Shown here: positions 5,548 through 47,844 of the stretch, in pieces | Layout of the letters: each line of letters begins with the position of its first letter | Position numbering within the stretch: the first letter of the stretch is position 1 | Source of the DNA: Escherichia phage p000y | Length of the DNA: 64,000 nucleotides | Sequence record: MK047718.1 | Direction: 5' to 3' (one strand) | The notes under the pieces: model-generated | The model's database searches: none | The model's input: only the letters and a program-made list of their open reading frames with translations | What the model was told of the DNA's origin: nothing | Translations under genes and position numbers: made by a program

Positions 5548-5577
5548 GTTTACGCTTTCAAATGAGTGTGTTACTAT
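5548..5577 (+). promoter_or_regulatory. T4 early promoter (GTTTAC-N18-TACTAT) for rnh
   Basis: Match to T4 early promoter consensus; ~30 nt upstream of rnh ATG. Confidence 0.65.
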
Positions 5578-5609
5578 AGACAAGTTGACTAACTGAACAA
5601 GAGGTTCAT

Positions 5610-6527
5610 ATGGATTTAGAAATGATGTTGGATGAAGATTACAAAGAAGGTATTGCGCTTGCCGACTTTAGTAACATTGCACTGGCAGCCGCATTAAACA
5701 ACTTTGAAGACGGCGATAAAATTACAGTTCCAATGGTTCGCCATGTAATCTTGAATTCAATTCGTAAAAACGTAGTGATGTTCCGTAAGCAAGGCTATAC
5801 AAAATTTGTATTGTGTATGGATAATGCTACTTCGGGTTATTGGCGTCGAGACTTTGCTTACTATTACAAGAAAAATCGTAAAACCGATCGTGAAGCTTCA
5901 AAGTGGGATTGGGAAGGATATTTTACTGCACTCCATCAAGTTGTTGATGAGATTAAGAAATACATGCCATACGTTGTAATGGATATTGACAAGTATGAAG
6001 CGGATGACCATATCGGTGTATTAACTAAATATTTGTCATTAGCTGGACATAAAGTATGTATTGTTGCATCAGATGGTGACTTTACACAATTACACAAATA
6101 TCCTAACGTTAAACAGTGGTCGCCACCACAGAAAAAATGGGTTAAAATTAAGAATGGTTCTGCTGAAATTGATTGCATGACTAAAATTCTTAAAGGTGAC
6201 CGTAAGGATGGTGTTGCATCTGTTCGAGTTCGTGGCGACTTCTGGTTTACCAGAGTTGATGGTGAACGAACTCCGAGTATGAAAACATCGATTATTGAAG
6301 CAATTGCCAATGACCGTTCTCAAGCTGAAGTATTATTAAGTGCAGAAGAATATAAACGGTATCAAGAAAATTTGGTTCTCATTGATTTTGATTATATCCC
6401 TGATAATATTGCTTCAACCATTATAGAGTATTATAACTCGTATAAACAACAACCTAAAGGCAAGATTTATTCATACTTTGTAAAATCTGGTCTTTCTAAA
6501 TTAACAAGTGTAATTAATGAATTCTGA
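5610..6527 (+). CDS. rnh: RNase H (5'-3' exonuclease / flap endonuclease)
   Basis: 305 aa, N-terminus MDLEMMLDEDYKEGI... matches remembered T4 RNase H (305 aa); synteny. Confidence 0.93.
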   Translation: MDLEMMLDEDYKEGIALADFSNIALAAALNNFEDGDKITVPMVRHVILNSIRKNVVMFRKQGYTKFVLCMDNATSGYWRRDFAYYYKKNRKTDREASKWDWEGYFTALHQVVDEIKKYMPYVVMDIDKYEADDHIGVLTKYLSLAGHKVCIVASDGDFTQLHKYPNVKQWSPPQKKWVKIKNGSAEIDCMTKILKGDRKDGVASVRVRGDFWFTRVDGERTPSMKTSIIEAIANDRSQAEVLLSAEEYKRYQENLVLIDFDYIPDNIASTIIEYYNSYKQQPKGKIYSYFVKSGLSKLTSVINEF

Positions 6528-6804: not shown

Positions 6805-7120
6805 TATTAAACCGGTTGATGAGGCCGGTTTATCTGAACAAGAATTAGCAGTAAAACACGATAAAGATGATATCGCTAAATTGCTTGACCGACAAGAAAA
6901 CGGATTCATTATCGAATCCATGGTTGAACAATTTGGTATGTCTTATTTAGAAGCAACAACTGCTTTCTTGGAAGAAAATTCTATTCCAGAAACACAATTT
7001 GCTAAATTTATTCCTACAGGAATTGTTGAAAAAATTACAAGCGAAGCAATTGACGAAAACATGCTTCGCCCATCAGTTGCTCGTGGTGAAAAAACTAATA
7101 CGTTAGATTTCTTATTATGA
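6782..7120 (+). CDS. 33: Late transcription co-activator gp33
   Basis: 112 aa, MTQFSLSDIKPVDE...TNTLDFLL matches T4 gp33 (112 aa). Confidence 0.9.
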   Translation: MTQFSLSDIKPVDEAGLSEQELAVKHDKDDIAKLLDRQENGFIIESMVEQFGMSYLEATTAFLEENSIPETQFAKFIPTGIVEKITSEAIDENMLRPSVARGEKTNTLDFLL

Positions 7121-7770
7121 TTAAAATACGCATGCCTCCTGATGGAGAACGTTATATTAACGGAAAATCGGTATACAAACTATACTTGATGTGCAAACAA
7201 CATTTTAATGGTCGGTATGACGTAATCAAATATAACTGGTGCATGCGTGTTTCGGATAATGCGTATCAAAAACGCCGAGATAAATATTTCTTTGAAAAAC
7301 TAGCAGAGAAATATAAATTGAAGGAACTCACCTTGATATTCATAAGCAACTTAGTTGCTAACCAAGACGCATGGATTGGTGAGATATCAGACGCTGATGC
7401 ATTAGTTTTCTATAGGGAATATATTGGACGTCTCAAACAAGCTAAAGAGACGTTTTCTGAAGACGTACGTAACATCTACTATTTCAGTAAGAAAGTTGAA
7501 GTTAGTGCGCTTCAAGAGATATTTGATTATAATAACAACGTTCAGTCGAGCTACATATTCAAATTGCTACAAAGCAATATAATTTCATTTGAGACTTTCT
7601 TATTGTTAGACTCGTTTTTGAATATTATAGATAAGCACGACGAACTCACTGACAATTTAGTGTGGCAAAATTATTCTACCAAATTAAAGGCATATCGAAA
7701 AATACTTCAAATCGATGGAAATGCTGCTAAGAAATTGTTCATAGAAACAATCAAATCATGTAAGTATTAA
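7117..7770 (+). CDS. 59: Helicase loader gp59
   Basis: 217 aa, same length as T4 gp59; located between 33 and 32. Confidence 0.9.
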   Translation: MIKIRMPPDGERYINGKSVYKLYLMCKQHFNGRYDVIKYNWCMRVSDNAYQKRRDKYFFEKLAEKYKLKELTLIFISNLVANQDAWIGEISDADALVFYREYIGRLKQAKETFSEDVRNIYYFSKKVEVSALQEIFDYNNNVQSSYIFKLLQSNIISFETFLLLDSFLNIIDKHDELTDNLVWQNYSTKLKAYRKILQIDGNAAKKLFIETIKSCKY

Positions 7771-7799
7771 GCTTTATTTCTTGTGTGTTAAAATTACTT

Positions 7800-7807
7800 T
7801 ATAAATA
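7800..7807 (+). promoter_or_regulatory. Late promoter (TATAAATA) upstream of gene 32
   Basis: Exact TATAAATA; T4 gene 32 is known to have a late promoter. Confidence 0.6.
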
Positions 7808-7814
7808 AATCATA

Positions 7815-7895
7815 CCAGCTACGAGGTATAAGTGTCGTAGCAACCAACTGTAAATAAATTAAATAATTTAAATAATCTAAATAAAGGTAAATATA
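7815..7895 (+). promoter_or_regulatory. Gene 32 translational operator (hairpin/pseudoknot plus AU-rich UUAAA repeats)
   Basis: Stem GCUACG...CGUAGC at 7818-7841 followed by aaataaattaaataatttaaataatctaaataaa up to the ATG, resembling the T4 gp32 autoregulatory site. Confidence 0.55.
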
Positions 7896-8798
7896 ATGTT
7901 TAAACGTAAATCTACTGCTGACCTCGCTGCTCAAATGGCTAAACTGAACGGTAACAAAGGTTTCTCTTCAGAAGATAAAGGCGAATGGAAGCTGAAGCTA
8001 GATGCATCCGGTAATGGTCAAGCGGTAATTCGTTTCTTGCCAGCAAAAACTGATGATGCACTACCATTTGCAATTCTTGTTAACCACGGTTTCAAGAAAA
8101 ATGGTAAATGGTATATTGAAAATTGCTCTTCTACACATGGTGATTACGACTCTTGTCCTGTATGTCAGTACATTAGTAAAAATGACCTGTACAATACCAA
8201 CAAAGCTGAATATTCTCAACTGAAACGTAAAACTTCTTATTGGGCTAATATTCTGGTTGTTAAAGACCCTCAAGCTCCAGATAATGAAGGTAAAGTATTT
8301 AAATATCGTTTCGGTAAAAAGATTTGGGACAAAATCAATGCAATGATTGCAGTTGATACCGAAATGGGTGAAACTCCAGTTGATGTTACTTGTCCGTTTG
8401 AAGGTGCTAACTTCGTTCTGAAAGCTAAGCAGGTTTCTGGTTTTAGCAACTATGACGAATCTAAATTCTTGGGTCAATCTGAAATTCCTCGTATTAATGA
8501 CGAAGCATTCCAGAAAGAACTATATGACCAGATGGTAGACCTTACCACTTTGACGGCTAAAGACCAGTTCAAATCCTTTGAAAAATTAAATGAATCTTTC
8601 GCTAAGGTTCTTGGTACTGCCGCTCTTGGTGGTGCAGCAGCCGCAGCAGCTTCTGTTGCAGATAAAGTTGCTTCTGACCTTGACGATTTTGATAAAGACA
8701 TGGAAGCCTTTAGTTCTGCAAAAACTGAAGATGACTTCATGAGTTCTACCTCATCCTCTGATGATGGTGACCTCGATGACCTGTTAGCTGGTCTATAA
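7896..8798 (+). CDS. 32: ssDNA-binding protein gp32
   Basis: 300 aa, [36 protein letters not shown]..., acidic C-terminus; near-identical to remembered T4 gp32. Confidence 0.95.
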
Positions 8799-8804
8799 TA
8801 AATC

Positions 8805-8822
8805 GGGAGACTTCGGTCTCCC
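8805..8822 (+). terminator. Tetraloop terminator GGGAGAC-UUCG-GUCUCCC + U-run after gene 32
   Basis: 7-bp GC-rich stem, UUCG loop, followed by TTTT. Confidence 0.8.
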
Positions 8823-8853
8823 TTTTGAGTATCTGTAAATTGCCGAAAAAGTT

Positions 8854-8883
8854 GTTTACTTCTTCCCTGGATGTATTAGTATA
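8854..8883 (+). promoter_or_regulatory. T4 early promoter upstream of ORF 8912
   Basis: GTTTAC + ~18 nt + TAGTAT; followed by conserved leader caacaacatgaggaaa. Confidence 0.6.
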
Positions 8884-8911
8884 GACATATCAACAACATG
8901 AGGAAATCAAA

Positions 8912-9316
8912 ATGGAAATCGGAAAATCTTATATCATTAACCCTTTATTTAAAGACGACTTTGTTCAAGAAGCACCACATAATAACGCTAAGATGTTAAA
9001 ACTGATTGAACTCCATGGGCCTAGTTTTGTTGTAAACGGAATGGAACCTGATTACGATAGCGATACGCCAAACGTAGTAAGTGTAACTATGGAAGATGGT
9101 ACTGTATGTTCTGCCGGTGGTGAAATTGAAACTTATTTTGAGATTTATCCTGATGAGTTCAAATACTTTATTGAGTACTTTACTGAGGTAGATTTAGTAA
9201 AGCCTCAACCTACTAACGAAGGTATAACTTTAGGTGTAACAAAAATCCATTGTATCGTAGATGAAACCAACGTCGACGAAATCATCGAACTTTTGCAAAA
9301 AACTTTTAAAAAGTAG
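8912..9316 (+). CDS. Hypothetical acidic protein (32.1/segG locus)
   Basis: 134-aa ORF with own early promoter and AGGA RBS; no recognisable motif. Confidence 0.6.
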   Translation: MEIGKSYIINPLFKDDFVQEAPHNNAKMLKLIELHGPSFVVNGMEPDYDSDTPNVVSVTMEDGTVCSAGGEIETYFEIYPDEFKYFIEYFTEVDLVKPQPTNEGITLGVTKIHCIVDETNVDEIIELLQKTFKK

Positions 9317-9345
9317 TTTACAATCAGATAGGGTTATGTTATAGT
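9316..9345 (+). promoter_or_regulatory. T4 early promoter
   Basis: GTTTAC-N18-TATAGT. Confidence 0.6.
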
Positions 9346-9379
9346 AGCCCTATCAAATAAAAGTGAAGAGGAGAATAAA

Positions 9380-9622
9380 ATGAGATTGCAACGCCAGAGC
9401 ATCAAAGATTCAGAAGTTAGAGGTAAATGGTACTTCAACATCGTTGGTAAAGATGCTGAACTCCTTGAACAAGCTGAAGAAGCTTTACGTGAAATGGGTT
9501 GGAACGAAGAATGTGATGGATGTCCACTCTACGAAGATGGTATATCATCCGGATTCTGGATTTATCACTCGGATGTCGACCAATTTAAAGCTGATTGGAA
9601 AATTGTGAAAAAGTCTGTTTGA
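9380..9622 (+). CDS. Hypothetical protein (frd.2-like position)
   Basis: 80-aa ORF with GAGGAG RBS. Confidence 0.5.
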   Translation: MRLQRQSIKDSEVRGKWYFNIVGKDAELLEQAEEALREMGWNEECDGCPLYEDGISSGFWIYHSDVDQFKADWKIVKKSV

Positions 9623-9631
9623 GGAAATACA

Positions 9632-9883
9632 ATGAAAACACTAAATTTACTTAAGGTTGGGGAAGACATAGATATTGCTGATATCTACAAAAATCTAACT
9701 TATTATGATAATTTATTTGTCGTTCAAACCTTAAATGGCGATTATTACACTGTTTCTTTAGTGCGAAATAAATTTAAAAACAAATTTTACTTTTGTATTT
9801 ATAATTATCACGGCCAACGCTCTAGCAATTATATTGAACCATCTGACATATTTTATATTGAGGAATTAAAATGCTTAAATTAG
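9632..9883 (+). CDS. Hypothetical protein (frd.1-like position)
   Basis: 83-aa ORF, tightly packed with neighbours. Confidence 0.5.
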   Translation: MKTLNLLKVGEDIDIADIYKNLTYYDNLFVVQTLNGDYYTVSLVRNKFKNKFYFCIYNYHGQRSSNYIEPSDIFYIEELKCLN

Positions 9884-10458
9884 TATTCGCATGCGCACCA
9901 TCTAAAACAGTTGATGATAAACTGGAATATGCTTTTGGATTAGGTGATGGACTTCCATGGAAGCATATCAAACAAGATATGAGTAACTTTGTTGCTCGCA
10001 CTAAAAACACTGTAATGGTTATGGGTGCTAAGACTTTTGCATCATTACCTCGTCTACTCCCAGATCGTACTCATGTAGTTGTCACCGATATGTCTAGAAA
10101 ACTGCCTAGGACTAAAAGCGACGAACTTGCACGGTTCTATATCACCCAAGCAGAATTTATTACCCTGGTGACTGGTAGTGAAATTAACTTGTTCGGCCCT
10201 TCAACAGACGTACCATTTAAACTTTCTACTGAACATGTTGATGTATCTGTTATCGGTGGCCCGGCTCTATTAAAACAAGCACTGCCTTATGCCGATGAAA
10301 TTGTGATGACTAAAATCATTAAGAAATGTCGTGTTAATTCAGACGTTCAACTTGATAAAGATTTCATCCAAGATATTATGCTTCAACGTTCTATGGTAGA
10401 ATCTCATTACTACAGAATCGATGAACTCACCGAAATTACTGAGAGCGTATATAAATGA
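9871..10458 (+). CDS. frd: Dihydrofolate reductase
   Basis: 195 aa, MLKLVFACAPSKTVDDKLEYAFGLGDGLPW... matches T4 Frd (~193 aa). Confidence 0.9.
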   Translation: MLKLVFACAPSKTVDDKLEYAFGLGDGLPWKHIKQDMSNFVARTKNTVMVMGAKTFASLPRLLPDRTHVVVTDMSRKLPRTKSDELARFYITQAEFITLVTGSEINLFGPSTDVPFKLSTEHVDVSVIGGPALLKQALPYADEIVMTKIIKKCRVNSDVQLDKDFIQDIMLQRSMVESHYYRIDELTEITESVYK

Positions 10459-11315
10459 AACAATACCAATACCTGATTAATGATATCCTAGAAAATGGCT
10501 ACGAAACAGACGACCGTACAGGCACAGGAACAATTGCCCTGTTCGGAACTAAATTACGTTGGGACCTGACTAAAGGATTCCCTGCAGTAACAACTAAGAA
10601 ATTAGCATGGAAAGCTTGTATTGCCGAGTTACTGTGGTTCATGTCTGGTTCTACCAATGTTAATGATTTACGTATTCGTACTCACGGTAGTCTTATTCAA
10701 GGTAAAACTATTTGGGACGACAACTATGAAAATCAGGCAAAAGACCTTGGATATCATAGCGGCGAACTTGGTCCTATTTATGGTAAGCAATGGCGTGATT
10801 TTGGCGGTGTAGACCAATTGGTCAAAACTATCGACCGCATTAAAGCTCTTCCTAATGATCGTCGTCAAATTGTTTCTGCCTGGAATCCGGCTGAAATAAA
10901 TCAAATGGCACTTCCTCCTTGCCATATGTTCTATCAGTTCAATGTGCGTAATGGTCATCTTGATTTACAATGGTACCAGAGAAGTGTTGATGTTTTCTTG
11001 GGCTTGCCGTTCAACATTGCCTCGTACGCTGCCTTGACTCATATTGTAGCTAAGATGTGTAATCTTATCCCGGGTGATTTAGTGTTCTCAGGCGGCAACA
11101 CGCATATCTACAGCAATCATGTCGAGCAATGCAAAGAAGTTCTTCGTCGTGAACCTAAAGAGTTATGTTCTCTTGAAATTAATTGGCCTAGTAATTTTGA
11201 GAATTGGCCTACAAAAATCCAAATGGACTGGGTTACTGGAACGATGACACATTCTGATTTCGTTCTTAAAAATTACGAATCTCATCCAGCTATCAAAGCT
11301 AAAATGGCGGTATAA
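10455..11315 (+). CDS. td: Thymidylate synthase (continuous, no intron)
   Basis: 286 aa uninterrupted ORF; MKQYQYLINDILENGYETDDRTGTGTIALFG... matches T4 Td (286 aa after splicing). Confidence 0.95.
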   Translation: MKQYQYLINDILENGYETDDRTGTGTIALFGTKLRWDLTKGFPAVTTKKLAWKACIAELLWFMSGSTNVNDLRIRTHGSLIQGKTIWDDNYENQAKDLGYHSGELGPIYGKQWRDFGGVDQLVKTIDRIKALPNDRRQIVSAWNPAEINQMALPPCHMFYQFNVRNGHLDLQWYQRSVDVFLGLPFNIASYAALTHIVAKMCNLIPGDLVFSGGNTHIYSNHVEQCKEVLRREPKELCSLEINWPSNFENWPTKIQMDWVTGTMTHSDFVLKNYESHPAIKAKMAV

Positions 11316-11316
11316 A

Positions 11317-11571
11317 ATGATTTTACGTTTTATTAATTCATATGGCACCACAATTTTTGAAATGAAAAATCCAAGTGAACTGGATATCCCTTCACCAAAT
11401 AGTGAAATCACAGTTAAAGGTGAACGATTCATTTGTTATTCACATGAACGAATTTATGAATATCGTGAATTCTGTGGTGGATTCGGTATAGAAAAAGAAC
11501 CGTTGGTTTATTTTAATATCACGGTCTTGACTCCTAAAGAATACGAAGAAATTATTGCAGAGGACATGTAA
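11317..11571 (+). CDS. Hypothetical protein
   Basis: 84-aa ORF between td and nrdA. Confidence 0.5.
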   Translation: MILRFINSYGTTIFEMKNPSELDIPSPNSEITVKGERFICYSHERIYEYREFCGGFGIEKEPLVYFNITVLTPKEYEEIIAEDM

Positions 11572-11876
11572 TGAAAATGTGCCGCGTTGTGAATAAATAT
11601 AAATCCGATTTTGATGTTAATATTCATCGTGGCACATTCTGGGGAAATTATGTAGGCAAGGATGCCTCTTCCCGAGAAGAAGCTATTGAGCTTTTCAAAA
11701 AGGATTTTATTAAGAGAATTAAGTGTGGAGAAATCACAAAAGCTCATCTAGAACCTTTACGTGGTATGCGTCTGGGATGCACATGTAAACCAAAAGCCTG
11801 TCATGGTGATATAATATCTCTAGTGGTTAATAAACTTTTTAAAGACGAATTTAATATAGAGGACATATGCAAGTAA
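11571..11876 (+). CDS. Hypothetical Cys/His-motif protein
   Basis: 101-aa ORF with motif GCTCKPKACHGD; stop overlaps nrdA start. Confidence 0.5.
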   Translation: MKMCRVVNKYKSDFDVNIHRGTFWGNYVGKDASSREEAIELFKKDFIKRIKCGEITKAHLEPLRGMRLGCTCKPKACHGDIISLVVNKLFKDEFNIEDICK

Positions 11877-14122
11877 CTAAGAGCAGTGGCGTATCCCAAA
11901 ATTTTGATGCACAGAAAATTATCCAAGTTCTGACCTGGCAATGTGAAGGAACACAAATTGACCCATATGAATTGTACGAAGAAATTAAGACCCATCTTGT
12001 CGACGGGATGAGCACCAAAGATATTCAGAAGATTTGTATTAAAGTTGCAGCTAACTCGATTTCTGTCGAAGAACCTGATTATCAGTATGTCGCCGCCAAA
12101 GGGCTAATGTTTGCACTTCGTAAAGATGTGTATGGCCAGTTTGAACCGCCTGCTTTTATCGACCATATTTCTTATTGTGTTAATGAAGGCAAATATGACC
12201 CTGAGCTGTTGTCTCAATATTCAGCAGAAGAAATCATTTATCTCGATTCACAGATTAAACATGAACGAGACTTTGACCTGACTTATGCTGGTGCTATGCA
12301 ACTTAAAGAAAAATATCTAGTTAAAGATAAAACAACTGGGAAGATTTATGAAACTCCCCAGTTTGCTATCATGGCTATTGGCATGGCCTTACACCAAGAC
12401 GAAACTCATGACCGTTTGAAACATATTATTCGTTTTTATGATGCCGTTTCTACTCATCAAGTTTCATTGCCAACCCCAATTATGGCAGGTGCTCGTACTC
12501 CGACTCGCCAGTTTTCTAGTTGTGTAGTTATTGAAGCCGGTGATTCCTTAAAATCTATTAACAAAACTTCAGCATCAATTATTGAATATATTTCTAAACG
12601 AGCTGGTATTGGTATCAACGTTGGTATGCTTCGTGCAGAAGGTTCTAAGATCGGTATGGGTGAAGTTCGACATACGGGTGTTATTCCGTTCTGGAAACAT
12701 TTCCAAACTGCAGTAAAATCTTGTTCTCAAGGCGGTATTCGTGGTGGTGCTGCTACAGCATATTATCCGATGTGGCACTTAGAAGTAGAGAACCTATTAG
12801 TTCTGAAAAATAACAAAGGCGTGGATGAAAACCGTATTCGACATATGGACTACGGAATTCAGATTAATGACCTTATGATGGAACGCCTTGGTAAAAATGA
12901 TTATATTACTTTATTTAGCCCTCACGAAATGTCAGGCGAACTATACTACTCGTTCTTTGAAGATCAAGATAAATTCCGTGAGCTTTATGAGAAAGCTGAA
13001 AAAGACCCAACAATCAGAAAGAAAAGAATCAAAGCACTAGAACTCTTTGAATTGTTCATGACTGAACGTTCTGGCACCGCTCGAATTTATCCGCAATTCG
13101 TTGATAACACGAACAACTACACTCCATTTATTCGTGAAAAAGCTCCAATTCGTCAGAGTAACTTATGTTGTGAAATCGCTATTCCAACTAATGATGTGAA
13201 TGGTCCTGATGCTGAAATTGGTTTATGCACATTATCTGCTTTTGTATTAGATAAATTTGATTGGCAAGACCAAGATAAAATTAATGAACTTGCTGAAGTA
13301 CAAGTACGTGCACTTGATAACCTGTTAGACTATCAAGATTATCCGGTTCCAGAAGCTTTAAAAGCTAAAAAGCGTCGAAACCTCGGTGTTGGTGTGACGA
13401 ACTATGCCGCATGGTTAGCTTCTAACTTTGCTTCATATGAAGACGCTAACGATTTGACTCATGAATTGTTTGAGAGATTGCAATATGGCCTTATCAAAGC
13501 ATCAATCAAACTCGCCAAAGAAAAAGGATGTTGCGAGTATTATTCAGACACTAAATGGTCTAGAGGCGAATTACCTATCGACTGGTACAATAAAAAGATT
13601 GACCAAATCGCAGCCCCGAACTACGTCTGTGACTGGGAAGAACTTCGAGCTGAACTCAAAGAACATGGAATTCGTAACTCAACGTTGTCTGCACTCATGC
13701 CTTGTGAGTCAAGCAGTCAAGTATCAAACTCTACAAACGGGATTGAGCCACCACGTGGTCCAGTAAGTATTAAAGAATCTAAAGAAGGCAACTTCCGACA
13801 GGTTGTTCCTAATATCGAACATAACATGAGTCTTTACGACTACGCGTGGAAACTTGCTAAGAAAGGTAATAAACCTTATTTGACCCAAGTTGCTATCATG
13901 TTGAAATGGGTGTGCCAATCTGCTTCTGCTAATACTTACTATGACCCTGCAGTATTTGAGAAAGGTAAAGTGCCAATGTCAGTAATGCTTGACGATCTGC
14001 TTTACTTCTGGTACTTTGGCGGAAAAAACCTCTACTATCATAACACTCGTGATGGGTCCGGTACAGACGACTATGAATTAGAAACACCTAAAGCAGAAGA
14101 TTGTTCTGCTTGTAAGCTTTAA
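11867..14122 (+). CDS. nrdA: Aerobic ribonucleotide reductase large subunit
   Basis: 751 aa (T4 NrdA ~754 aa); class I RNR motifs; synteny. Confidence 0.95.
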   Translation: MQVTKSSGVSQNFDAQKIIQVLTWQCEGTQIDPYELYEEIKTHLVDGMSTKDIQKICIKVAANSISVEEPDYQYVAAKGLMFALRKDVYGQFEPPAFIDHISYCVNEGKYDPELLSQYSAEEIIYLDSQIKHERDFDLTYAGAMQLKEKYLVKDKTTGKIYETPQFAIMAIGMALHQDETHDRLKHIIRFYDAVSTHQVSLPTPIMAGARTPTRQFSSCVVIEAGDSLKSINKTSASIIEYISKRAGIGINVGMLRAEGSKIGMGEVRHTGVIPFWKHFQTAVKSCSQGGIRGGAATAYYPMWHLEVENLLVLKNNKGVDENRIRHMDYGIQINDLMMERLGKNDYITLFSPHEMSGELYYSFFEDQDKFRELYEKAEKDPTIRKKRIKALELFELFMTERSGTARIYPQFVDNTNNYTPFIREKAPIRQSNLCCEIAIPTNDVNGPDAEIGLCTLSAFVLDKFDWQDQDKINELAEVQVRALDNLLDYQDYPVPEALKAKKRRNLGVGVTNYAAWLASNFASYEDANDLTHELFERLQYGLIKASIKLAKEKGCCEYYSDTKWSRGELPIDWYNKKIDQIAAPNYVCDWEELRAELKEHGIRNSTLSALMPCESSSQVSNSTNGIEPPRGPVSIKESKEGNFRQVVPNIEHNMSLYDYAWKLAKKGNKPYLTQVAIMLKWVCQSASANTYYDPAVFEKGKVPMSVMLDDLLYFWYFGGKNLYYHNTRDGSGTDDYELETPKAEDCSACKL

Positions 14123-15355: not shown

Positions 15356-15357
15356 GG

Positions 15358-15381: not shown

Positions 15382-15792
15382 ATGAAAGATATCGCCGCCG
15401 AATATTCCTTTATTAAATATACAGAATTGGAGCTATTAGAAGATGCAACAATTAAAACAGTTGATGTCCCTAATAAGAAAAATGTCATATATGCTATTGC
15501 TATAGATGACGAACTTGTGTATATTGGTAAAACCAAGAATTTAAAGAAACGCATTAACTATTATCGAACAGCCATAAATCGAAAAGACCAGACTTCAGAT
15601 TCAAGAAAATCACTTATGATTTTGGATGCCTTAATGCAAGGCAAAAAGGTTGAATTCTGGGCCCGCCAATGTTTTGACCTTTCAGTCACCAACGAACTTG
15701 GTTCAATGACCATCGCAACAATGGACCTTGAAGAACCACTTTTTATCAAAAAGTTCAACCCGCCTTGGAATATCCAACATAAGAAAAAGTAG
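15382..15792 (+). CDS. denA: Endonuclease II (GIY-YIG family)
   Basis: 136 aa, GIY-YIG-like motif IYAIAIDDELVYIGKTKNLKKRINYYR; matches T4 EndoII size and sequence. Confidence 0.85.
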   Translation: MKDIAAEYSFIKYTELELLEDATIKTVDVPNKKNVIYAIAIDDELVYIGKTKNLKKRINYYRTAINRKDQTSDSRKSLMILDALMQGKKVEFWARQCFDLSVTNELGSMTIATMDLEEPLFIKKFNPPWNIQHKKK

Positions 15793-15821
15793 TTTACATA
15801 CCACAAGGATTGTGGTACAAT
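15792..15821 (+). promoter_or_regulatory. T4 early promoter upstream of rnlA
   Basis: GTTTAC-N18-TACAAT; spacer contains palindrome CCACAAggattGTGG. Confidence 0.6.
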
Positions 15822-15838
15822 TTAAAAAAACTAACTGA

Positions 15839-16972
<1,134 letters not shown>

Positions 16973-16974
16973 CG

Positions 16975-17004
16975 GTTTACAAACACCAAGGATGGTGATA
17001 CTAT
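16975..17004 (+). promoter_or_regulatory. T4 early promoter upstream of alc
   Basis: GTTTAC-N18-TACTAT then leader tcaacaacacgaggag. Confidence 0.6.
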
Positions 17005-17033
17005 GGGTTTATCAACAACACGAGGAGAAAATT

Positions 17034-17534
17034 ATGAATATGCAATTGATTACTAACGATATGGTCGTAAACGCTTTTGGAGACACAACTGACGGAATCC
17101 GGGTCTTTAAGAAAGGACGTCCAGTTGGTTATCTTACTGACCTACGGGTTACACTGGCCAAAAATCTTAAAAAGAAAGTAAAACAAAAAGAGTATTCAAC
17201 CCGATACGCTGAAGAGAAACGCGAAGCGATGCCAGAAGCAGTTAATGCTATGGTAGAATTTCTTCAAAACAATTTGACTAAATATGACGCTAATGTGTTC
17301 ATTAATATTAGTCAACCAAACGTACATATCGCAGGTATAAAATTCTACATTATTTGCGACCCTCTTACCGACAAATTCAACCGTCTCGGAATTTCAAGTC
17401 CATATCATACAGCAGAAGAGTTGTGTGTATTGTTTGAATCGTACAAAATCCAGTGTGATGGTTTGAAAACCGTTCTTATCAATGGATTATCCCGAGATGA
17501 AATCATTGAGATTATTAAAACATGCTTAAAGTAA
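17034..17534 (+). CDS. alc: Alc-like transcription termination factor (host transcription shutoff)
   Basis: ATG at 17034 downstream of early promoter and GAGGAG RBS gives ~166 aa (T4 Alc 167 aa); assignment by position and size. Confidence 0.6.
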   Translation: MNMQLITNDMVVNAFGDTTDGIRVFKKGRPVGYLTDLRVTLAKNLKKKVKQKEYSTRYAEEKREAMPEAVNAMVEFLQNNLTKYDANVFINISQPNVHIAGIKFYIICDPLTDKFNRLGISSPYHTAEELCVLFESYKIQCDGLKTVLINGLSRDEIIEIIKTCLK

Positions 17535-18165: not shown

Positions 18166-18380
18166 CTAAAGAACAGCATGAATACATTAAAGGGCTTATC
18201 TATGAATCTGAAATGGCGGCTATGATTTATGGACGCCAGATTCAACGATTAGAATCTTTGCCTCCGACTAATGACCGCTTGTTAGTTCAGTCTCGTGCTA
18301 ATCTGAAAAATGAATATCAGAATAAGTGGGCAGTAGCGACTAAAGCTCTTCATGAGTATATTGAATCTTTAGTAAAATAG
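18156..18380 (+). CDS. Hypothetical protein (pseT.1 position)
   Basis: 74-aa ORF. Confidence 0.5.
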   Translation: MPMTKEQHEYIKGLIYESEMAAMIYGRQIQRLESLPPTNDRLLVQSRANLKNEYQNKWAVATKALHEYIESLVK

Positions 18381-18409
18381 TTTACAAACTCTCAGGAGCA
18401 GAGTATAAT
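18380..18409 (+). promoter_or_regulatory. T4 early promoter
   Basis: GTTTAC-N18-TATAAT; -10 flanked by inverted repeat GGAGCA/TGCTCC. Confidence 0.6.
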
Positions 18410-18437
18410 GCTCCTATGGATAATTGAGGAAATCTAA

Positions 18438-18736
18438 ATGAAAACATTACTAGAGAATTACATCAAACGGTCTGATGAGTATATTGATATCTGTCGTGGA
18501 ATGTCACTTGGCAATTATGACAAAGATGCAGCAAAGGCACTAGATGAAGCAGGTAAAGCTCTTCGTAAAGCTGCTAAAGAAAAAGGGTTGGATTTGCAAC
18601 AACTCAAAAGTCATATGATTAAATTTATTTCTTCAAACGTTAGAAGTACGTCAATTAATAAAAACGTTGCTGAAATTAATAAAGACCGGCGCGAGCATAA
18701 CATTCGTATTCTTGAAATTTTCTTAGGAATAAAATA

Positions 18737-20504: not shown

Positions 20505-20516
20505 TGGTTTACAACA

Positions 20517-20546
20517 TGGTGGAGTTGTGATACTATAACTCTACCA
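20517..20546 (+). promoter_or_regulatory. T4 early promoter
   Basis: GTTTAC-N18-TACTAT plus leader ccaacaaatgaggaaa. Confidence 0.6.
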
Positions 20547-20564
20547 ACAAATGAGGAAATAGAA

Positions 20565-20801
20565 ATGCTAAGTGAAAACCCAATTACAGTACACGAATTT
20601 CAGATTAAAGTAAAAGAATTTGCTCAAGCACTCATCAATAAAGTGTCTGAACGTTTCCAAGATGCAACATTACGAGTTATTCAAGAATCTCCACGTTCTT
20701 TTCTCATAATCGTTAATCCTAAAGATGGTGACCAAATTACTAATCTTAAATTAGGCAGTGATGGTCTTGTTGAAGCAACTCGAGTATATGGAACACTATA
20801 A
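20565..20801 (+). CDS. Hypothetical protein
   Basis: 78-aa ORF with early promoter at 20517-20546 and GAGGA RBS. Confidence 0.5.
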   Translation: MLSENPITVHEFQIKVKEFAQALINKVSERFQDATLRVIQESPRSFLIIVNPKDGDQITNLKLGSDGLVEATRVYGTL

Positions 20802-24036: not shown

Positions 24037-24058
24037 GGGAGACTTCGGTCTCCCTTTT
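24037..24058 (+). terminator. Tetraloop terminator GGGAGAC-UUCG-GUCUCCC + UUUU
   Basis: Same hairpin as at 8805; directly follows the 59-aa ORF. Confidence 0.8.
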
Positions 24059-24091: not shown

Positions 24092-24120
24092 GTTTACTCT
24101 CCTGTAGGATGTGTTACTAT
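24092..24120 (+). promoter_or_regulatory. T4 early promoter
   Basis: GTTTAC-N17/18-TACTAT. Confidence 0.6.
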
Positions 24121-24162
24121 AGACTTGTACCACCTAATCAATAAAACAAACCGGAGAACAAA

Positions 24163-24531
24163 ATGAAAATCAATCTGAACTCATACATCAAATGTAAAGA
24201 CCACGATGGTTATAAAGCTATCGAAATTAAAGAATTCCAGTGGATGTTATACAAAGAGCAATTTGAGTTCGTAGGTTGTATGACCCCTGAAGGTCCTTCA
24301 GATGATTTCTCTTGGAAAATTGTGTTAGCAAACTTTTTCACAGGTGACACATACGAATTAAAAACTATTATTACCGGTAAAATTCGTTCAGAAACATATG
24401 TTGACGAAGAAACTGGTTACTCTGAAGTTGTTACATGGTATCAAAATGGACGCATTACAGCAGATAACCTGATCGAAAAAATGAAAGCCAAAGGTGTTTT
24501 AAATTTAGACAATTGGATTAAAGTTGCATAA
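24163..24531 (+). CDS. Hypothetical protein (30.x block)
   Basis: 122-aa ORF after early promoter 24092-24120. Confidence 0.55.
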   Translation: MKINLNSYIKCKDHDGYKAIEIKEFQWMLYKEQFEFVGCMTPEGPSDDFSWKIVLANFFTGDTYELKTIITGKIRSETYVDEETGYSEVVTWYQNGRITADNLIEKMKAKGVLNLDNWIKVA

Positions 24532-24535: not shown

Positions 24536-24565
24536 GTTTACTTTGGTACAGGTTATGTTATTATA
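24536..24565 (+). promoter_or_regulatory. T4 early promoter
   Basis: GTTTAC-N18-ATTATA; inverted repeat GGTACAGG/CCTGTACC brackets the -10. Confidence 0.55.
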
Positions 24566-24605
24566 GACCTGTACCAACAAACAACTTAAACATCTGGAGA
24601 ATAAA

Positions 24606-24971
24606 ATGAACTACATCAACTTCGAACGTAAATATGTTTCTAACGGTATCGCTGGTTCTTCTGAAGTTATTTGCCTGTGGAAACACGAAAACGGTTCAGT
24701 ATGTGAAATTGAGCAGTATATGACTCCTAATTACGTTTATATGCGATTTGAAAATGGCATCACGGTTTCAATCACGATGGAAGGTTCAAATTTTAAAATT
24801 GCATTAGATGATGATTTCCGTCAGCGTGATTTAGGTACTCATCCTTGCTGGAATGGTGTTAATCGTAAACTTCTGGTTAAAACTTGGATTCGTCATATCC
24901 TGAGTAACCGAGCTAAACCTGAACATCTCGAAGCAATCTTTGATGTAGTTCTTAACGAATTTGATATCTAA
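24606..24971 (+). CDS. Hypothetical protein (30.x block)
   Basis: 121-aa ORF after early promoter 24536-24565; GGAGA RBS. Confidence 0.55.
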   Translation: MNYINFERKYVSNGIAGSSEVICLWKHENGSVCEIEQYMTPNYVYMRFENGITVSITMEGSNFKIALDDDFRQRDLGTHPCWNGVNRKLLVKTWIRHILSNRAKPEHLEAIFDVVLNEFDI

Positions 24972-25007: not shown

Positions 25008-25622
25008 ATGTTTAAAGTTAATACTTTTTATAAAATGAATTTTAAAAACGGGGATATTACTCCACGCCTTAAAAACATGTTCTCATATGACCTTATCGAG
25101 CCTTTTGAAGTTTTAGAAGTTACTGATGCTGGCTCGGTTTGTGAAATTAGAACTTCTGAAGGTAAAATTTATCAGGCAGGTGTTGGTAAATTCAGTAATT
25201 GTTTTACTTTAATATTCTCGACTGATTTAGATGAGCATTTTATTGAATGTCCTAACCATAAGGTCTACGAAGTTCCATGGAAAGAAACTAAGAAAAATGG
25301 ACCGCATGAATACACGAAGGTTGAAACTCCTCACGGCGATATGTGGCGGCATAACTCTCCTTTCGGAAGTAAAGGAACATTTGCTCAACTGCCTAAACCT
25401 TATGACGATGAAAAATACATCGTCGCCTTTTTATCTGAACAGGGTACTCAAGACCGTGGATGTCAACGAAGTGGTTTACTAAGTGAACTTGAAGCTCATA
25501 ACCAAGCACGTGAATTCGTTGAGAAAAATCCTGGCTCTGAAGCTCTAGTCATGAAAGCAATTACTCAATATATCACTGCTCAACCTGTTGTTCATCCGGT
25601 AGAAATTAATTTCATTAAGTAG
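25008..25622 (+). CDS. Hypothetical protein (30.x block)
   Basis: 204-aa ORF; no motif recognised. Confidence 0.55.
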   Translation: MFKVNTFYKMNFKNGDITPRLKNMFSYDLIEPFEVLEVTDAGSVCEIRTSEGKIYQAGVGKFSNCFTLIFSTDLDEHFIECPNHKVYEVPWKETKKNGPHEYTKVETPHGDMWRHNSPFGSKGTFAQLPKPYDDEKYIVAFLSEQGTQDRGCQRSGLLSELEAHNQAREFVEKNPGSEALVMKAITQYITAQPVVHPVEINFIK

Positions 25623-25652
25623 TTTACATCCAAGGACGGATTAGAGTATAAT
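25622..25652 (+). promoter_or_regulatory. T4 early promoter
   Basis: GTTTAC-N19-TATAAT. Confidence 0.55.
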
Positions 25653-25676
25653 GATTTCTTTAGTAAGTGGAAAAAT

Positions 25677-25874
25677 ATGAAATTTTTAATAGCACAAACA
25701 GTCCAATTAAAAGGTGTTGGAATTCCTGGGGTGATTTTTAAAGTTCTCCCTGAATTTAAAACCGGCGCTGGAATTATCAATGAAGCGTATGCTGTTCAAT
25801 GGGTTGATTGGACTTCTGACATACGTATGGGTAAAGAGTTATCTCCTATTAAAGGGTTGAAACATGTTGAATAA
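25677..25874 (+). CDS. Hypothetical protein
   Basis: 65-aa ORF after early promoter 25622-25652. Confidence 0.45.
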   Translation: MKFLIAQTVQLKGVGIPGVIFKVLPEFKTGAGIINEAYAVQWVDWTSDIRMGKELSPIKGLKHVE

Positions 25875-29351: not shown

Positions 29352-31439
29352 ATGTCTGAACAATTAAATGAAGTGTTTGAATCTGAAGGCAGTCTTCCTG
29401 TCGTCAATTTGAACCCTAAAGCTAAAGTTCCACAAGTCTGGAAAATTGGTGATATCGATACAAATATTGTAGTTCGTTTATTCTCTTACCTTTCCGAAGG
29501 CGACGCTGTAAAACAAGTTAAACTTGGCGACAAATACGCTCATGTTGTTATTATGAGTCTGTCTGAAAAGGGTAATCTCGCTGAATTGAAAAATGGTCTT
29601 GGTCCTGCTCCTATTGATGCAATCAACACCATTTTCAATACAGTGTATGAACAGGTTAAAGCTCTTCGTATGGATGCAGTTTTGTTCCGATTCCCTACTA
29701 AGAAATTGAAAGGACGTGGACAACAACTTCAAACTCTTCTTGCTCGTTTAGTTTCTACTAAAACTGGTGGTCGTTTTAAAGTATTGTCTGCAATGTATCA
29801 ATTCACAGGTAAACACACATATGTGATGATGGTTCGTAAAAATGCCAACATTGAAGATATTAAAGGCATCCCTAACATTAACACAGAGTTGTACACGAAA
29901 GTAGATTCTGATGTTGGTGAAGTTTATGTGAGTAAAAAGACTGGCGAAAAGGTCACCAAAGAAACGGCTATCGCTGGTTCTATTGCTGCTGTAGAAGAAA
30001 AACGTAAAGATAAGCCTGTTATTGCTCGTACTAAAATTTCTCGTCGCGCCATTGCAGCAAGTCAATCTTTAGAAGCTGACCGCCAAGAAGGTGAGCTATT
30101 CCAGAAATACGAAAATTCTGCTAAAGAAGTTAGTGGCCCAGCTACAGCTGAATTACTTCCTGAAGCATATGAAATCGTACTAGCCCAAGCATCGTCCACA
30201 GCAAAAGGCACTTTAGTTGCTGATATCGAAAATAAGATTTATAATCGTATTGATGAATCCTTTAGATTTGCTGATGAAGTTTCTTATGGCAGTGTTATTA
30301 AGCCAACTTTAGAAAAGTTTGCTAAGAAAATTAAAACTGAAAAAACAACATCTGTTAAAGCATTAGCTGCTTTTGTTGAAGCTGCAAATGAAATTGCAGA
30401 CTCTATTAAAGACGAATGGTTTGAAGATTTTAGACGAGATAATTTCCAACTGGCTGACGACGTTTTAGCTGAAGTATCTGAAAAAACTTGGAAACAACGT
30501 AAATCAGCGTTCTTGTCTAATGTGATGTATACTTATGCACGAGAATCGGCTAGAGGCACCTTTAATATAACAATGAATCGGGACCCTAAACAATACTCTG
30601 TTGCTGAAAAACGAGCTATTCGTGAATATGCCTCTTCTGCGTATACCGATATCAATAATATGTTGTTAGGCCGTTATAAACCGGATTTTTATGATGTTGC
30701 AGATGAAGATGAAGTTAAACGCGCTATTGATGGTCTTGATTCGGCGTTTTTAAATGGAGACCGTTTACCTGAAGGACTAACGTTGTATAGAGCCCAGTCT
30801 ATCAGAATGCCTATTTATGAAGCAATGGTTAAAAATAAGGTATTCTACTTCAGAAACTATGTTTCCACTTCACTAGCTCCTATTATTTTCGGTGGGTTTA
30901 AAGAGAACGTTGCCCTTGGACTTGCTCCTGAAGAAGTTCGCAAAGAGCTTAACATTGACAATAATGACGAAGGTGTTACTATTTCTCCTAGTCAAGTAAG
31001 AACAGCTATGCATGCACCAGAACAAATCCGTGTTAACGTTGGATGGGCTATTGATGGCGCTCATAAAGTTAACGTGATTTATCCAGGACAGTTGAGTAAT
31101 CACCCTAATGAGCAAGAAATTATTTTGCCTAGAGGCATTCTCTTGCAGATAAATAAAATTACAGATGCGTCATCTGACACTGGTGCAGGTTTAGAATCCA
31201 ACCTTAAATTTATTCAAGCTGAAGTCATGTCCTCAGACCAGTTGGACGAAGCTGTCATTTACGATGGTGATGTTCTCATGGAAACAGGCGAGGTGGTTGC
31301 TATGACGGGTGAAATCGAATCGGATGAGCCGGTATCGTTCTCCTCATTTGTAGAAAAAACTAGTGCTCCTAAAGGATTGAAACTGTTAGCATCTTTAATG
31401 GATTTGGAATCGGTTCCGTTTAAATTTGTTCAAGGATAG
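29352..31439 (+). CDS. alt: Alt-like ADP-ribosyltransferase (head-packaged)
   Basis: 695 aa (T4 Alt ~682 aa); position between 30 and 54; C-terminal region has ART-like segment YASSAYTDINNMLLGR. Confidence 0.8.
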   Translation: MSEQLNEVFESEGSLPVVNLNPKAKVPQVWKIGDIDTNIVVRLFSYLSEGDAVKQVKLGDKYAHVVIMSLSEKGNLAELKNGLGPAPIDAINTIFNTVYEQVKALRMDAVLFRFPTKKLKGRGQQLQTLLARLVSTKTGGRFKVLSAMYQFTGKHTYVMMVRKNANIEDIKGIPNINTELYTKVDSDVGEVYVSKKTGEKVTKETAIAGSIAAVEEKRKDKPVIARTKISRRAIAASQSLEADRQEGELFQKYENSAKEVSGPATAELLPEAYEIVLAQASSTAKGTLVADIENKIYNRIDESFRFADEVSYGSVIKPTLEKFAKKIKTEKTTSVKALAAFVEAANEIADSIKDEWFEDFRRDNFQLADDVLAEVSEKTWKQRKSAFLSNVMYTYARESARGTFNITMNRDPKQYSVAEKRAIREYASSAYTDINNMLLGRYKPDFYDVADEDEVKRAIDGLDSAFLNGDRLPEGLTLYRAQSIRMPIYEAMVKNKVFYFRNYVSTSLAPIIFGGFKENVALGLAPEEVRKELNIDNNDEGVTISPSQVRTAMHAPEQIRVNVGWAIDGAHKVNVIYPGQLSNHPNEQEIILPRGILLQINKITDASSDTGAGLESNLKFIQAEVMSSDQLDEAVIYDGDVLMETGEVVAMTGEIESDEPVSFSSFVEKTSAPKGLKLLASLMDLESVPFKFVQG

Positions 31440-31468
31440 TTTACAAGCACATGGATGTGTGATACTAT
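31439..31468 (+). promoter_or_regulatory. T4 early promoter
   Basis: GTTTAC-N18-TACTAT then leader tcaacaacatgaggaaa. Confidence 0.6.
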
Positions 31469-31497
31469 CATCCTATCAACAACATGAGGAAAACGTT

Positions 31498-31791
31498 ATG
31501 AAATCTATGCTTCGCTTTAATGGTCAAGAACTAGTAGTTGAAGATGCTATCCCAGCGGATGATGTTTTTAACGAAGCTGTGATTGACGAATTGAATCGAG
31601 TATTCCCAGGTGCATTCCATATTGCTATGGAACCTCTTAAAAACTTTCGTGACCCTGAACACACTGATCAAATTTTTATCGGTGTACTGACAGGTCATTT
31701 AGAAACAGAGGTACCAATGGTCGTATTAGTTAAATACTCTAAAGATGATACTCCATTCCGAGCACCAGCATTCCTTTCATTCCGTAAATAA
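31498..31791 (+). CDS. Hypothetical protein
   Basis: ATG at 31498 after early promoter 31439-31468 and GAGGA RBS (track ORF begins at TTG 31426 inside the promoter); ~97 aa. Confidence 0.5.
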   Translation: MKSMLRFNGQELVVEDAIPADDVFNEAVIDELNRVFPGAFHIAMEPLKNFRDPEHTDQIFIGVLTGHLETEVPMVVLVKYSKDDTPFRAPAFLSFRK

Positions 31792-44587: not shown

Positions 44588-44788
44588 TTGATTATGAGAG
44601 CTGAAGTTGAAGTTTATACATTACATGAGGCGGGATTTTCATTCGTAGAAATTGCTCAAAAAATTGGTTTACAACCTAAAGAAGTTGGATTACTATGGAC
44701 TAAAGCCGAGACAGCTCGGTCAAAGTTTAAAGCAAAAGAAAAAGTTGTATACCGTAAACGTTTGATTAACAAAAAGGTGAAGAAATGA
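44588..44788 (+). CDS. Hypothetical small protein with possible helix-turn-helix
   Basis: 66 aa; segment FSFVEIAQKIGLQPKEVG looks HTH-like; basic C-terminus. Confidence 0.45.
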   Translation: MIMRAEVEVYTLHEAGFSFVEIAQKIGLQPKEVGLLWTKAETARSKFKAKEKVVYRKRLINKKVKK

Positions 44789-47514: not shown

Positions 47515-47544
47515 GTTTACAACGTATTTGGTATGTGATACTAT
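47515..47544 (+). promoter_or_regulatory. T4 early promoter for orphan ORF 47575
   Basis: GTTTAC-N18-TACTAT, leader tcaactacagaggag. Confidence 0.6.
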
Positions 47545-47574
47545 AGACTTATCAACTACAGAGGAGTAAACAAA

Positions 47575-47844
47575 ATGACTAAAGCACGTTTCTTACGAGA
47601 TACTTTAAAAGTTCTGGAAGCTGAAGCAGTTAAGTTAGTAGAAAAATATGGTGCAAAAGTTAATGGTAATGCCTTCAACAAAGTATGGATGAAAGTTGAT
47701 TCTGAAGCTCGAGCTAAAGGTTATTGGGCCACTGATAAACTTGCATCATTCAAAAACAAAGATGGTTCTCCGGCATATGTCCAAGAAGGTATGCCTAATT
47801 GGCAAAATATTTTGAAAACTTACATCGAAATTGCACAGAAATAA
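47575..47844 (+). CDS. Hypothetical orphan early protein between genes 24 and 23
   Basis: 89-aa ORF on the strand opposite the flanking late genes; own early promoter (47515-47544), GAGGAG RBS, tetraloop terminator. Confidence 0.6.
   Translation: MTKARFLRDTLKVLEAEAVKLVEKYGAKVNGNAFNKVWMKVDSEARAKGYWATDKLASFKNKDGSPAYVQEGMPNWQNILKTYIEIAQK

Follow-up and report, generated by a model that had tools for sequence, protein, structure and literature searches.

The early promoters of phage T4 have been described as "über" promoters that combine an UP element, a −35 element, a TGn motif, and a −10 element with extra consensus positions (Hinton 2010, PMC2988021). A prediction for RB69 yielded 57 early promoters, with GTTTAC located at −36 to −31 and C preferred at −3 to −1 (Nolan et al. 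2006, PMC1524935). The published early-promoter logos, the legend of which sets nucleotide 0 at the start site, appear not to cover the transcribed leader (PMC1524935). Repeated elements referred to as PeSLs (promoter-early stem-loops), with a proposed and in part demonstrated function in modular shuffling, have been published for three phage pairs, i.e., RB49/phi1, T4/PST, and KVP40/nt-1 (Arbiol 2010, PMC2839356; Comeau 2014, PMC4122927). PeSLs have an AT-rich upstream tract and stem-loops between or over the promoter boxes (Arbiol 2010, PMC2839356; Comeau 2014, PMC4122927), and in PST/T4, they contain a TTTACW-N17-TAYWAT promoter with a Shine-Dalgarno sequence (SD) plus ATG at the 3′ end (Comeau 2014, PMC4122927). 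In RB49/phi1, mini-circles experimentally demonstrated crossovers between the −10 element and the ATG, and the same literature cites patches of ~50 bp for the T4 recombination system (PMC2839356; PMC4122927). Finally, as far as the work is relayed in later papers, repeated early-promoter-based elements 5′ of small variable genes, with a proposed role in shuffling, have been described for the IP loci of T-even phages (Repoila et al. 1994, via PMC2839356, PMC4122927).

Here, we analyzed a stretch of 64,000 nucleotides from Escherichia phage p000y (MK047718.1), referred to as the window. Megablast searches with positions 7,000-19,000 and 5,000-29,999 returned ~1,000 T4-like phage records, of which the best matches, with 95-98% identity over at least 97% of the query, were all classified as Mosigvirus and include F31, EP32a, WFL6982, JS09, and phage 55. 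Approximately 150 complete Mosigvirus and Tequatrovirus genomes span at least 80% of this region. Based on these matches, the window is assigned to Mosigvirus, i.e., an RB69/JS09-like T-even phage, and is reverse-complemented relative to the T4 map. Using gene identities taken from the JS09/F31 annotation, the gene order is that of T4 (gp34-rnh...alt) on the opposite strand. Thus, gp34 (1631-5506) is on the − strand; rnh, dsbA, 33, 59, 32, frd.2, frd.1, frd, td, nrdA, nrdB, denA, and rnlA, and then alc, pseT, cd, 31, rIII, 30.9-30.1, 30, alt, and alt.-3, follow on the + strand; and the late baseplate and head genes after alt.-3 are again on the − strand.

An earlier note on this DNA had reported a repeated early promoter followed by a conserved leader in front of at least seven genes. 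Using a scan combined with alignment, we identified 12 intergenic T4-type early promoters in the 64-kb window. All are on the + strand, which is the early-gene strand, each cassette ends at an annotated ATG, and they have the form GTTTAC-N17-19-TAnnAT; most also have TGn and, further upstream, an A-tract. The genes 3′ of the cassettes include the early genes rnh, frd.2, frd.1, rnlA, alc, cd.2, 30.8, 30.7, 30.5, and alt.-3. In the frd.2 cassette (8854..8914), the −35 element GTTTAC is at 8854-8859, the −10 element TAGTAT at 8877-8882, the predicted +1 is A 8889, and the leader TATCAACAACATGAGGAAA (8888-8906) precedes the ATG at 8912; the spacing and −10 element are N17-TAGTAT rather than N18-TACTAT as first reported. 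GTTTAC-N18-TACTAT is found in the cassettes of alc (16975..17036; leader TATCAACAACACGAGGAGA; ATG 17034), alt.-3 (31439..31500; leader TATCAACAACATGAGGAAA, 19/19 identical to that of P8854; ATG 31498), and orf89 (47515..47577; leader TATCAACTACAGAGGAGTAAA; ATG 47575). The cassette of cd.2 (20507..20567; leader TACCAACAAATGAGGAAA; ATG 20565), previously placed at 20517, starts at 20507. The frd.1 cassette (9316..9382) has GTTTAC-N18-TATAGT, a leader beginning CTATCAA, the SD GGAGAATAAAA, which is a strong RegB-site consensus, and the ATG at 9380. In the cassettes of 30.8 (24092..24165) and 30.7 (24536..24608), the promoters are GTTTAC-N17-TACTAT and GTTTAC-N17-TATTAT, respectively; the former has a leader beginning agacTTGTACCA, the SD GGAGAACAAAA, and the ATG at 24163, and the latter the SD GGAGAATAAAA and the ATG at 24606. 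The remaining four cassettes precede rnh (5548..5612; GTTTAC-N18-TACTAT, with a leader of a different type), rnlA (15792..15850; GTTTAC-N18-TACAAT, with an A-rich leader), ORF231c (18380..18440; GTTTAC-N18-TATAAT; ATG 18438), and 30.5 (25622..25679; GTTTAC-N19-TATAAT, with a short leader). We note that one further exact match to GTTTAC-N18-TACTAT on the + strand (44667..44696) is doubtful and was dropped from the set, given its position within an ORF (44595-44788) and the lack of an SD/ATG leader.

The repeat is real and occurs far above chance. GTTTAC is invariant in 13 of 13 aligned copies, 12 of which end in SD-N5-8-ATG. The published PST/T4 PeSL consensus TTTACW-N17-TAYWAT has seven exact matches, all on the + strand, versus 0.23 expected. 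The composite pattern GTTTAC-N17-19-TANWAT-N5-7-TAYCAA has six exact matches in the window (8854, 16975, 20507, 24536, 31439, and 47515) versus 0.00 expected, and P9316, in which TATAGT is followed by CTATCAA, is a seventh, near copy. Thus, the proposed module in front of at least seven genes stands for the promoter plus the TAYCAA start box but not for the full leader: the complete 19-nt leader is present in three copies with zero to two mismatches, and five copies match it loosely, i.e., with an indel or several changes. Allowing up to three mismatches, TATCAACAACATGAGGAAA has three matches in the window versus 0.02 expected; it is exact at 8888 and 31474 and has two mismatches at 17010. Pairs of cassettes are exactly identical over stretches of typically 11-15 bp and of 19 bp at most.

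The aligned consensus reads AnAAAA..TT..AAAAAnTA-GTTTAC-AA.C....AGG.TTGTG.-TACTAT-AG.C.TATCAA.AA.A.GAGGAAAACAAAATG. The A-rich UP-like consensus AnAAAAnnTTnnAAAAAnTA precedes GTTTAC and is weaker at P16975, P20507, and P31439. In agreement with the Pe consensus, the −35 element GTTTAC(A) is at approximately −36 to −31 and the −10 element TAnnAT is 17 ± 1 nt from TTTACA; an extended TG was flagged in seven copies. The cassettes share with the T4 Pe and RB69 early promoters GTTTAC, a GT-rich stretch or TGn before the −10 element, TAnnAT, the A-tract, C at −3 to −1, and the same early genes behind, and nothing essential differs; compared to these promoters, the TAYCAACAACATGAGGAAA class of 5′ untranslated region (5′UTR) is a detail of this phage group. 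Positional orthologues of the cassettes are present in T4 at rnh, frd.1, cd.2, and 30.7. T4 record AF158101 names the cd.2 promoter, i.e., the orthologue of P20507, Pe133295, with coordinate 133295 falling on the A located seven nt downstream of the −10 element. Based on this coordinate, transcripts in the window are predicted to start at the A of tAtcaac/tAccaac, e.g., at 8889, 17011, 20543, and 31475, and the conserved leader would therefore constitute the entire 5′UTR of 25-27 nt. Together, the Mosigvirus identity, the position of the cassettes 5′ of early genes, and the orthology of P20507 to Pe133295 bear out the earlier designation of the repeat as an early promoter, and orthology together with the consensus suggests early timing of the transcripts.

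The leaders also account for two apparent N-terminal extensions containing YQQHEE, which had been suggested to be artifacts of translating through the cassette. ORF 16992.. reads MVILWVYQQHEEKIM, which is derived from the cassette in front of alc, and ORF 31426.. reads VILSSYQQHEENVM, with SSYQQHEENVM derived from the cassette in front of alt.-3. These extensions are artifactual, and the publicly annotated LF82-3, KAW3E185, and AV111 genomes also carry over-long alc and alt.-3 starts.

We consider it highly probable that the repeats serve an RB69/JS09-type T-even phage as cassettes for early-gene expression and are occasionally used as crossover points. In this model, each cassette would be a very strong host σ70 promoter of the T4 Pe type, with an A-rich UP-like tract, the −35 element GTTTACA, a 17-nt spacer usually ending in TGn, and the −10 element TACTAT/TATAAT, and would provide for immediate, phage-protein-independent expression of the gene behind it. 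The leader would be an efficient, short 5′UTR with a strong SD (GAGGAAA or GGAGAAYAAAA) and probably a role in translation. The copies would resemble each other through shared functional constraints and, in part, common ancestry, and short identical boxes, i.e., the TAYCAA/TGTACCA start box and the SD-ATG region, would occasionally serve as crossover points at which small accessory genes are deleted, inserted, or re-promoted.

To examine whether cassettes are used as crossover points, we compared the window with T4 and 12 Mosigvirus genomes by alignment and recorded all gaps in the resulting collinear chains. In AV116, gene 30.8 is absent and a single chimeric cassette consists of the 5′ half of P24092, as the left parent, and the 3′ half of P24536, as the right parent. 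The AV116 cassette follows P24092 up to TACTATAGACTTGTACCA and then P24536 from TGTACCAACAAAC to the 30.7 ATG; this switch places the crossover within the 7-nt TGTACCA at the start site. The single-cassette form was found as one uninterrupted match in at least eight independent records from several laboratories, while most other records keep both cassettes ~705 bp apart. A second case involves frd.2b, a paralogue of frd.2 with its own leader, acaaatgag(a)ggaaatca.aATG, which lies before frd.2a in phage 55 and after frd.2a in LF82-3. frd.2b and its leader are joined to a P8854-type core in phage 55 and to a P9316-type core in LF82-3, and both switch at CCTATCAAA; phage 55 also has a promoter-less leader remnant, caaatgaggaaatcaaaATG, before frd.2a. 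The P9316 cassette of the window itself is not a clean chimera of the two LF82-3 cassettes, as its middle segment matches neither parent. In ESCO47, the P18380 cassette is fused directly to pseT, and ORF231c and ORF230c are missing; T4 lacks the cassette as well as the two ORFs. P25622 is present only in genomes with the 30.6A allele, while the alternative 30.6 allele has no promoter at this position. The loss of similarity to T4-group genomes at the start of gp24, just before P47515, was discarded as evidence for cassette involvement because it is uninformative and simply represents the end of a conserved late gene.

Other gains and losses are unconnected to the cassettes. Homing endonuclease or intron events were found at 7116, 11002, 13201, 14115, and 14855 together with a homing endonuclease gene (HEG) variant at 11564-11888, and three additional genomes added only events of this type. 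In this small sample of ~10 independent non-HEG indels in 12 relatives, approximately half have no cassette at either end; cassette-less events include the ORF replacement/deletion at 9629-9861, nrdA.1 (11564-11865), a 135-bp segment after rIII, and the 30.4/30.3 deletion in ESCO47. Two of the cassette-less indels are flanked by short repeats of ribosome binding sites (RBSs), i.e., TTGAGGAAWTA and AGAGGACAT.

These observations have to be weighed against the possibility that the copies are alike purely by functional convergence and that recombination at cassettes is no more common than at any other gene boundary, since whole-gene indels necessarily end in intergenic regions. Consistent with this possibility, the spacers and upstream regions differ between copies, T4 and Mosigvirus keep orthologous cassettes at the same sites, no exact repeat exceeds 19 bp, and cassette-less indels are flanked by the other short RBS repeats. 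Also, 6 of 11 cassette-bearing junctions had a breakpoint versus 9 of 35 others (odds ratio of 3.5; one-sided Fisher P = 0.08), so that the enrichment of breakpoints at cassette junctions is not significant and only suggestive. Against it, in three events the two ends occupy equivalent positions in two different cassettes, i.e., in the AV116 chimera, joined in TGTACCA, and in the joining of frd.2b to two cores at CCTATCAAA, and cassettes make up only ~3% of the early region; moreover, the AV116 form recurs, and crossovers between the −10 element and the ATG were shown experimentally using the RB49/phi1 mini-circles. We therefore regard pure convergence as a possible but considerably less probable explanation than cassettes that are occasionally used as crossover points.

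The comparison with relatives is in agreement with the earlier suggestion that breakpoints of gene gain and loss fall inside cassettes, in that some of them do so and in register. The suggestion that the repeats are substrates for recombination is thereby supported, with a caveat as to their length. No two copies are exactly identical over more than 19 bp, which is less than the patches of ~50 bp cited for T4 recombination and short for classical homologous recombination; thus, these crossovers rest on short homology and not on efficient homologous recombination. We conclude that crossovers within cassettes are real and in register. They constitute one short-homology route among several, next to RBS repeats and homing endonucleases.

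The second alternative concerns the leader, which, instead of being generic, could be a specific RNA operator to which a regulator (a translational repressor, RegB/S1, or a small RNA) binds. In support of this notion, two unlinked loci, P8854 and P31439, have leaders with 19/19 identity. The cassettes have a strong SD that ends the leader 5-8 nt before the AUG and that falls into the classes GAGGAAA (8854, 18380, 20507, and 31439) and GGAGAAYAAAA (9316, 24092, and 24536). The strong RegB/S1 cleavage-site consensus is GG*AGRAYARAA, and GGAGRAYARAA has only three matches in the 64 kb versus 0.32 expected, each of which is a cassette SD (9316, 24092, and 24536). By contrast, the leader class TATCAACAAC...GAGGAAA does not match the RegB consensus, having GAGGAAA and not GGAG. 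When we folded the segments from promoter to start codon, the full-leader cassettes 8854, 16975, and 31439 had no significant structure, and the CA-rich stretch of the 5′UTR, AUCAACAACAU, has no predicted structure. A search of the whole window using the gathering thresholds returned no Rfam family and hence none in the leaders or the 135-bp indel. The internal ATG of the leader was rejected as an upstream ORF: it is not in frame, lacks an SD, and is not conserved, being ACG in the leader in front of alc. Finally, the motif decays gradually among copies as expected for a consensus. A dedicated RNA operator is thus an improbable explanation for the leader. The leaders of rnh, rnlA, and 30.5 are unrelated to the full leader, and the "one cassette" is best read as a promoter consensus that is combined with one of two or three classes of leader; the two SD classes may differ in post-transcriptional shut-off.

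We also considered that the start-site box (TAYCAA/TGTACCA, −1 to +6) is a preferred crossover point and more than a shared consensus, in that promoter-proximal R-loops formed by strong early promoters or extrusion of the −10 hairpins might seed T4-type join-copy recombination. This idea is speculative and rather unlikely; if true, transcription initiation itself would target gene shuffling to the first nucleotides of the 5′UTR.

To compare stem-loops, we folded the span from the −35 element to just past the start site and compared it with 200 shuffles. In P9316, P18380, P20507, and P24536, the −10 hexamer is part of the loop or stem of a strong hairpin (−12 to −18 kcal/mol; z −2.5 to −5.3; equaled by 0-5 of the 200 shuffles), i.e., ATAGGGTT/AGCCCTAT (z −5.3), AGGAGC/GCTCCT (z −2.5), GGTGGAGTT/AACTCTACC (z −4.9), and TTGGTACAGGT/ACCTGTACCAA (z −4.7), respectively, and P15792 has a hairpin in the spacer, CCACAAggaTTGTGG (z −2.0). 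No hairpin exceeded the shuffles in cassettes 5548, 16975, 25622, 31439, and 47515. The arms of the −10 hairpins differ by promoter at the same position (ATAGGG/CCCTAT, AGGAGC/GCTCCT, GGTGGAGTT/AACTCTACC, and GGTACAGG/CCTGTACC), and T4 retains the cd.2, frd.1, and 30.7 hairpins. A search for compensatory changes between the T4 and Mosigvirus orthologues yielded nothing beyond wobble changes, one-sided changes, and shifts in register around a conserved AGGG/CCCT core; accordingly, we make no claim of covariation within orthologues, and the argument for the hairpins rests on the different arms at the same position across promoters. The −10 hairpins are not followed by a U-tract, and a function as intrinsic terminators is unsupported; they are conserved from T4 to Mosigvirus at cd.2, frd.1, and 30.7 and may have a regulatory role of their own. 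Among the stem-loops, a resemblance to intrinsic terminators is limited to the two upstream GGGAGAC...GTCTCCC-TTTT hairpins. The gene 32 terminator hairpin, GGGAGACTTCGGTCTCCC followed by a T-run (8805..8822, + strand), is 32 nt upstream of P8854 and is taken to be the stem-loop part of a PeSL-type unit, while a second exact copy (24037..24054, + strand) is 38 nt upstream of P24092; this 18-mer has four exact copies in the window. Altogether, ~7 of 12 cassettes have a convincing stem-loop around the −10 element, in the spacer, or as an upstream terminator.

Similar to the cassettes, PeSLs combine an AT-rich tract, a σ70-type promoter, an SD plus ATG, and, as in part of the cassettes, a stem-loop (between the boxes, over the −10 element, or upstream), are repeated among small accessory genes, and undergo crossovers between the −10 element and the ATG that delete or insert the flanked gene. 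In contrast to the published PeSLs, only the ~7 of 12 cassettes have a stem-loop here, and the stems are short and of mixed AT/GC composition rather than polyG/polyC. The elements of the IP loci, as relayed from Repoila et al. 1994, resemble the cassettes in make-up; the IP loci themselves are outside this window. Mosigvirus is outside the three published PeSL phage pairs. The cassettes and their crossover role match the published T4/RB69 early promoters and PeSLs and are, as such, already known, and the Mosigvirus junctions are further examples of PeSLs and not a new kind of element.

The cassette in front of orf89 brings to mind a different type of accessory unit. In lambdoid phages, morons are single accessory genes with their own promoter and terminator. 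P47515 precedes an 89-amino-acid ORF on the early strand that is inserted between the late genes 24 and 23, and orf89, with P47515 and a terminator at 47855-47872, is moron-like. Unlike in morons, the regulatory repeat itself is the crossover site among the cassettes.

We consider it very unlikely that the cassettes are actively mobile, i.e., that a dedicated recombinase or a site-specific mechanism recognizes the stem-loop or the TATCAA box. The PeSL mini-circles of RB49/phi1, for which the authors speculated about a helper protein, and the clustering of junctions at one box would fit such a mechanism. However, no recombinase gene is associated with the cassettes, cassette loci are orthologous in T4 and Mosigvirus, the 7-9 bp of shared sequence explain the junctions, and other indels use unrelated microhomologies. 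Finally, although the genome is AT-rich and the bare promoter pattern with two mismatches has 18 matches versus 8.8 expected, chance likeness or low-complexity AT-rich sequence has next to no probability and is refuted by the counts for the exact composite patterns (6-7 matches versus 0.00-0.23 expected), all of which map to the early strand and lead up to a start codon.

The cassettes open no new question; their recognition is of practical value for annotation. Gene callers extend starts into the promoter, and alc and alt.-3 are too long in several public Mosigvirus records; once the cassettes are recognized, the true starts can be set and immediate-early genes identified, among them unnamed ORFs such as orf89. 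The chimeric cassettes, in turn, add Mosigvirus cases to the PeSL model, in which short regulatory repeats allow small accessory genes of T4-like phages to be gained, lost, and re-promoted without disturbing their neighbors.

The nrdA.1 presence/absence indel and the replacement or deletion of the ORF at 9632-9883 both occur without a promoter cassette. The former is flanked by short direct repeats of AGAGGACAT at 11561-11569 and 11859-11867, the latter by short direct repeats of TTGAGGAAWTA at 9619-9629 and 9858-9868, and both repeats are situated in ribosome-binding sites. Translation-initiation regions in general seem to function as microhomology junctions. Gene content also varies next to frd.2, where some relatives encode a 120-aa Frd.2 paralogue with ~59% identity. 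The gene for this protein lies 5' of frd.2a in phage 55 (region 8627-9419 in that record) and 3' of frd.2a in LF82-3 (region 7924-8734), and no paralogue is present in the corresponding region of the window (8912-9316). Downstream of rIII, the window carries a 135-bp segment (23557-23691) that is replaced by 3 bp in four relatives. This segment contains a degenerate promoter-like sequence, TTTTAC-N17-TATTTT, followed by gTACTATCA; in JS09 the site holds an intact TTTTAC-N18-TACTAT. A search of Rfam gave no match for the segment.

The window contains four mismatch-free copies of an 18-nt terminator hairpin, GGGAGACTTCGGTCTCCC, at 8805-8822 and 24037-24054 on the plus strand and at 472-489 and 47855-47872 on the minus strand. 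Two of the four copies are located 32-38 nt upstream of early cassettes. This hairpin is a further dispersed regulatory repeat and a possible recombination substrate.

Between genes 24 and 23, both late, at the site that segD occupies in T4, we identified an 89-aa ORF on the early strand that is accompanied by an early promoter of its own and by an opposite-strand terminator (region 47515-47896). Similarity to T4-group genomes ends exactly at the start of gp24. The ORF looks like a moron-like insertion. In addition, an exact match to GTTTAC-N18-TACTAT at 44667-44696, without an SD/ATG leader, lies within an ORF for a small HTH-like protein at the position of gene 24.3 (44595-44788); this match is either an internal promoter of the next gene (ATG at 44785) or a chance match. 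We note that a gene for a 330-aa DAHP synthase (phospho-2-dehydro-3-deoxyheptonate aldolase; 20922-21914), an auxiliary metabolic gene common to JS09-like relatives, lies between cd.2 and cd and takes the position of T4 cd.1.

In public records, the alc start codon is called within or upstream of the promoter in LF82-3 (16960-17523), KAW3E185 (25683-26246), and AV111 (25518-26060), as is that of alt.-3 in AV111 (39994-40326). These calls repeat the artefactual YQQHEE N-terminal extension.

In four promoters, the -10 hexamer is enclosed by a hairpin (9327-9355, 18394-18415, 20517-20546 in the cd.2 promoter, and 24543-24577), the arms of which differ in sequence from promoter to promoter. In T4, the orthologous cd.2 hairpin has a loop that coincides exactly with a 14-nt stretch of the record (133300-133313) bearing the annotation 'inverted complement of previously reported sequence; corrects the early promoter Pe133295'.

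The strong RegB/S1 cleavage-site consensus GGAGRAYARAA has three exact matches in the 64-kb window against 0.32 expected, and these are located in the Shine-Dalgarno regions of the frd.1 (9370-9380), 30.8 (24153-24163), and 30.7 (24596-24606) early cassettes, whereas TATCAACAAC-type leaders have GAGGAAA instead. This difference between leaders suggests that early mRNAs may comprise two classes that differ in shut-off.
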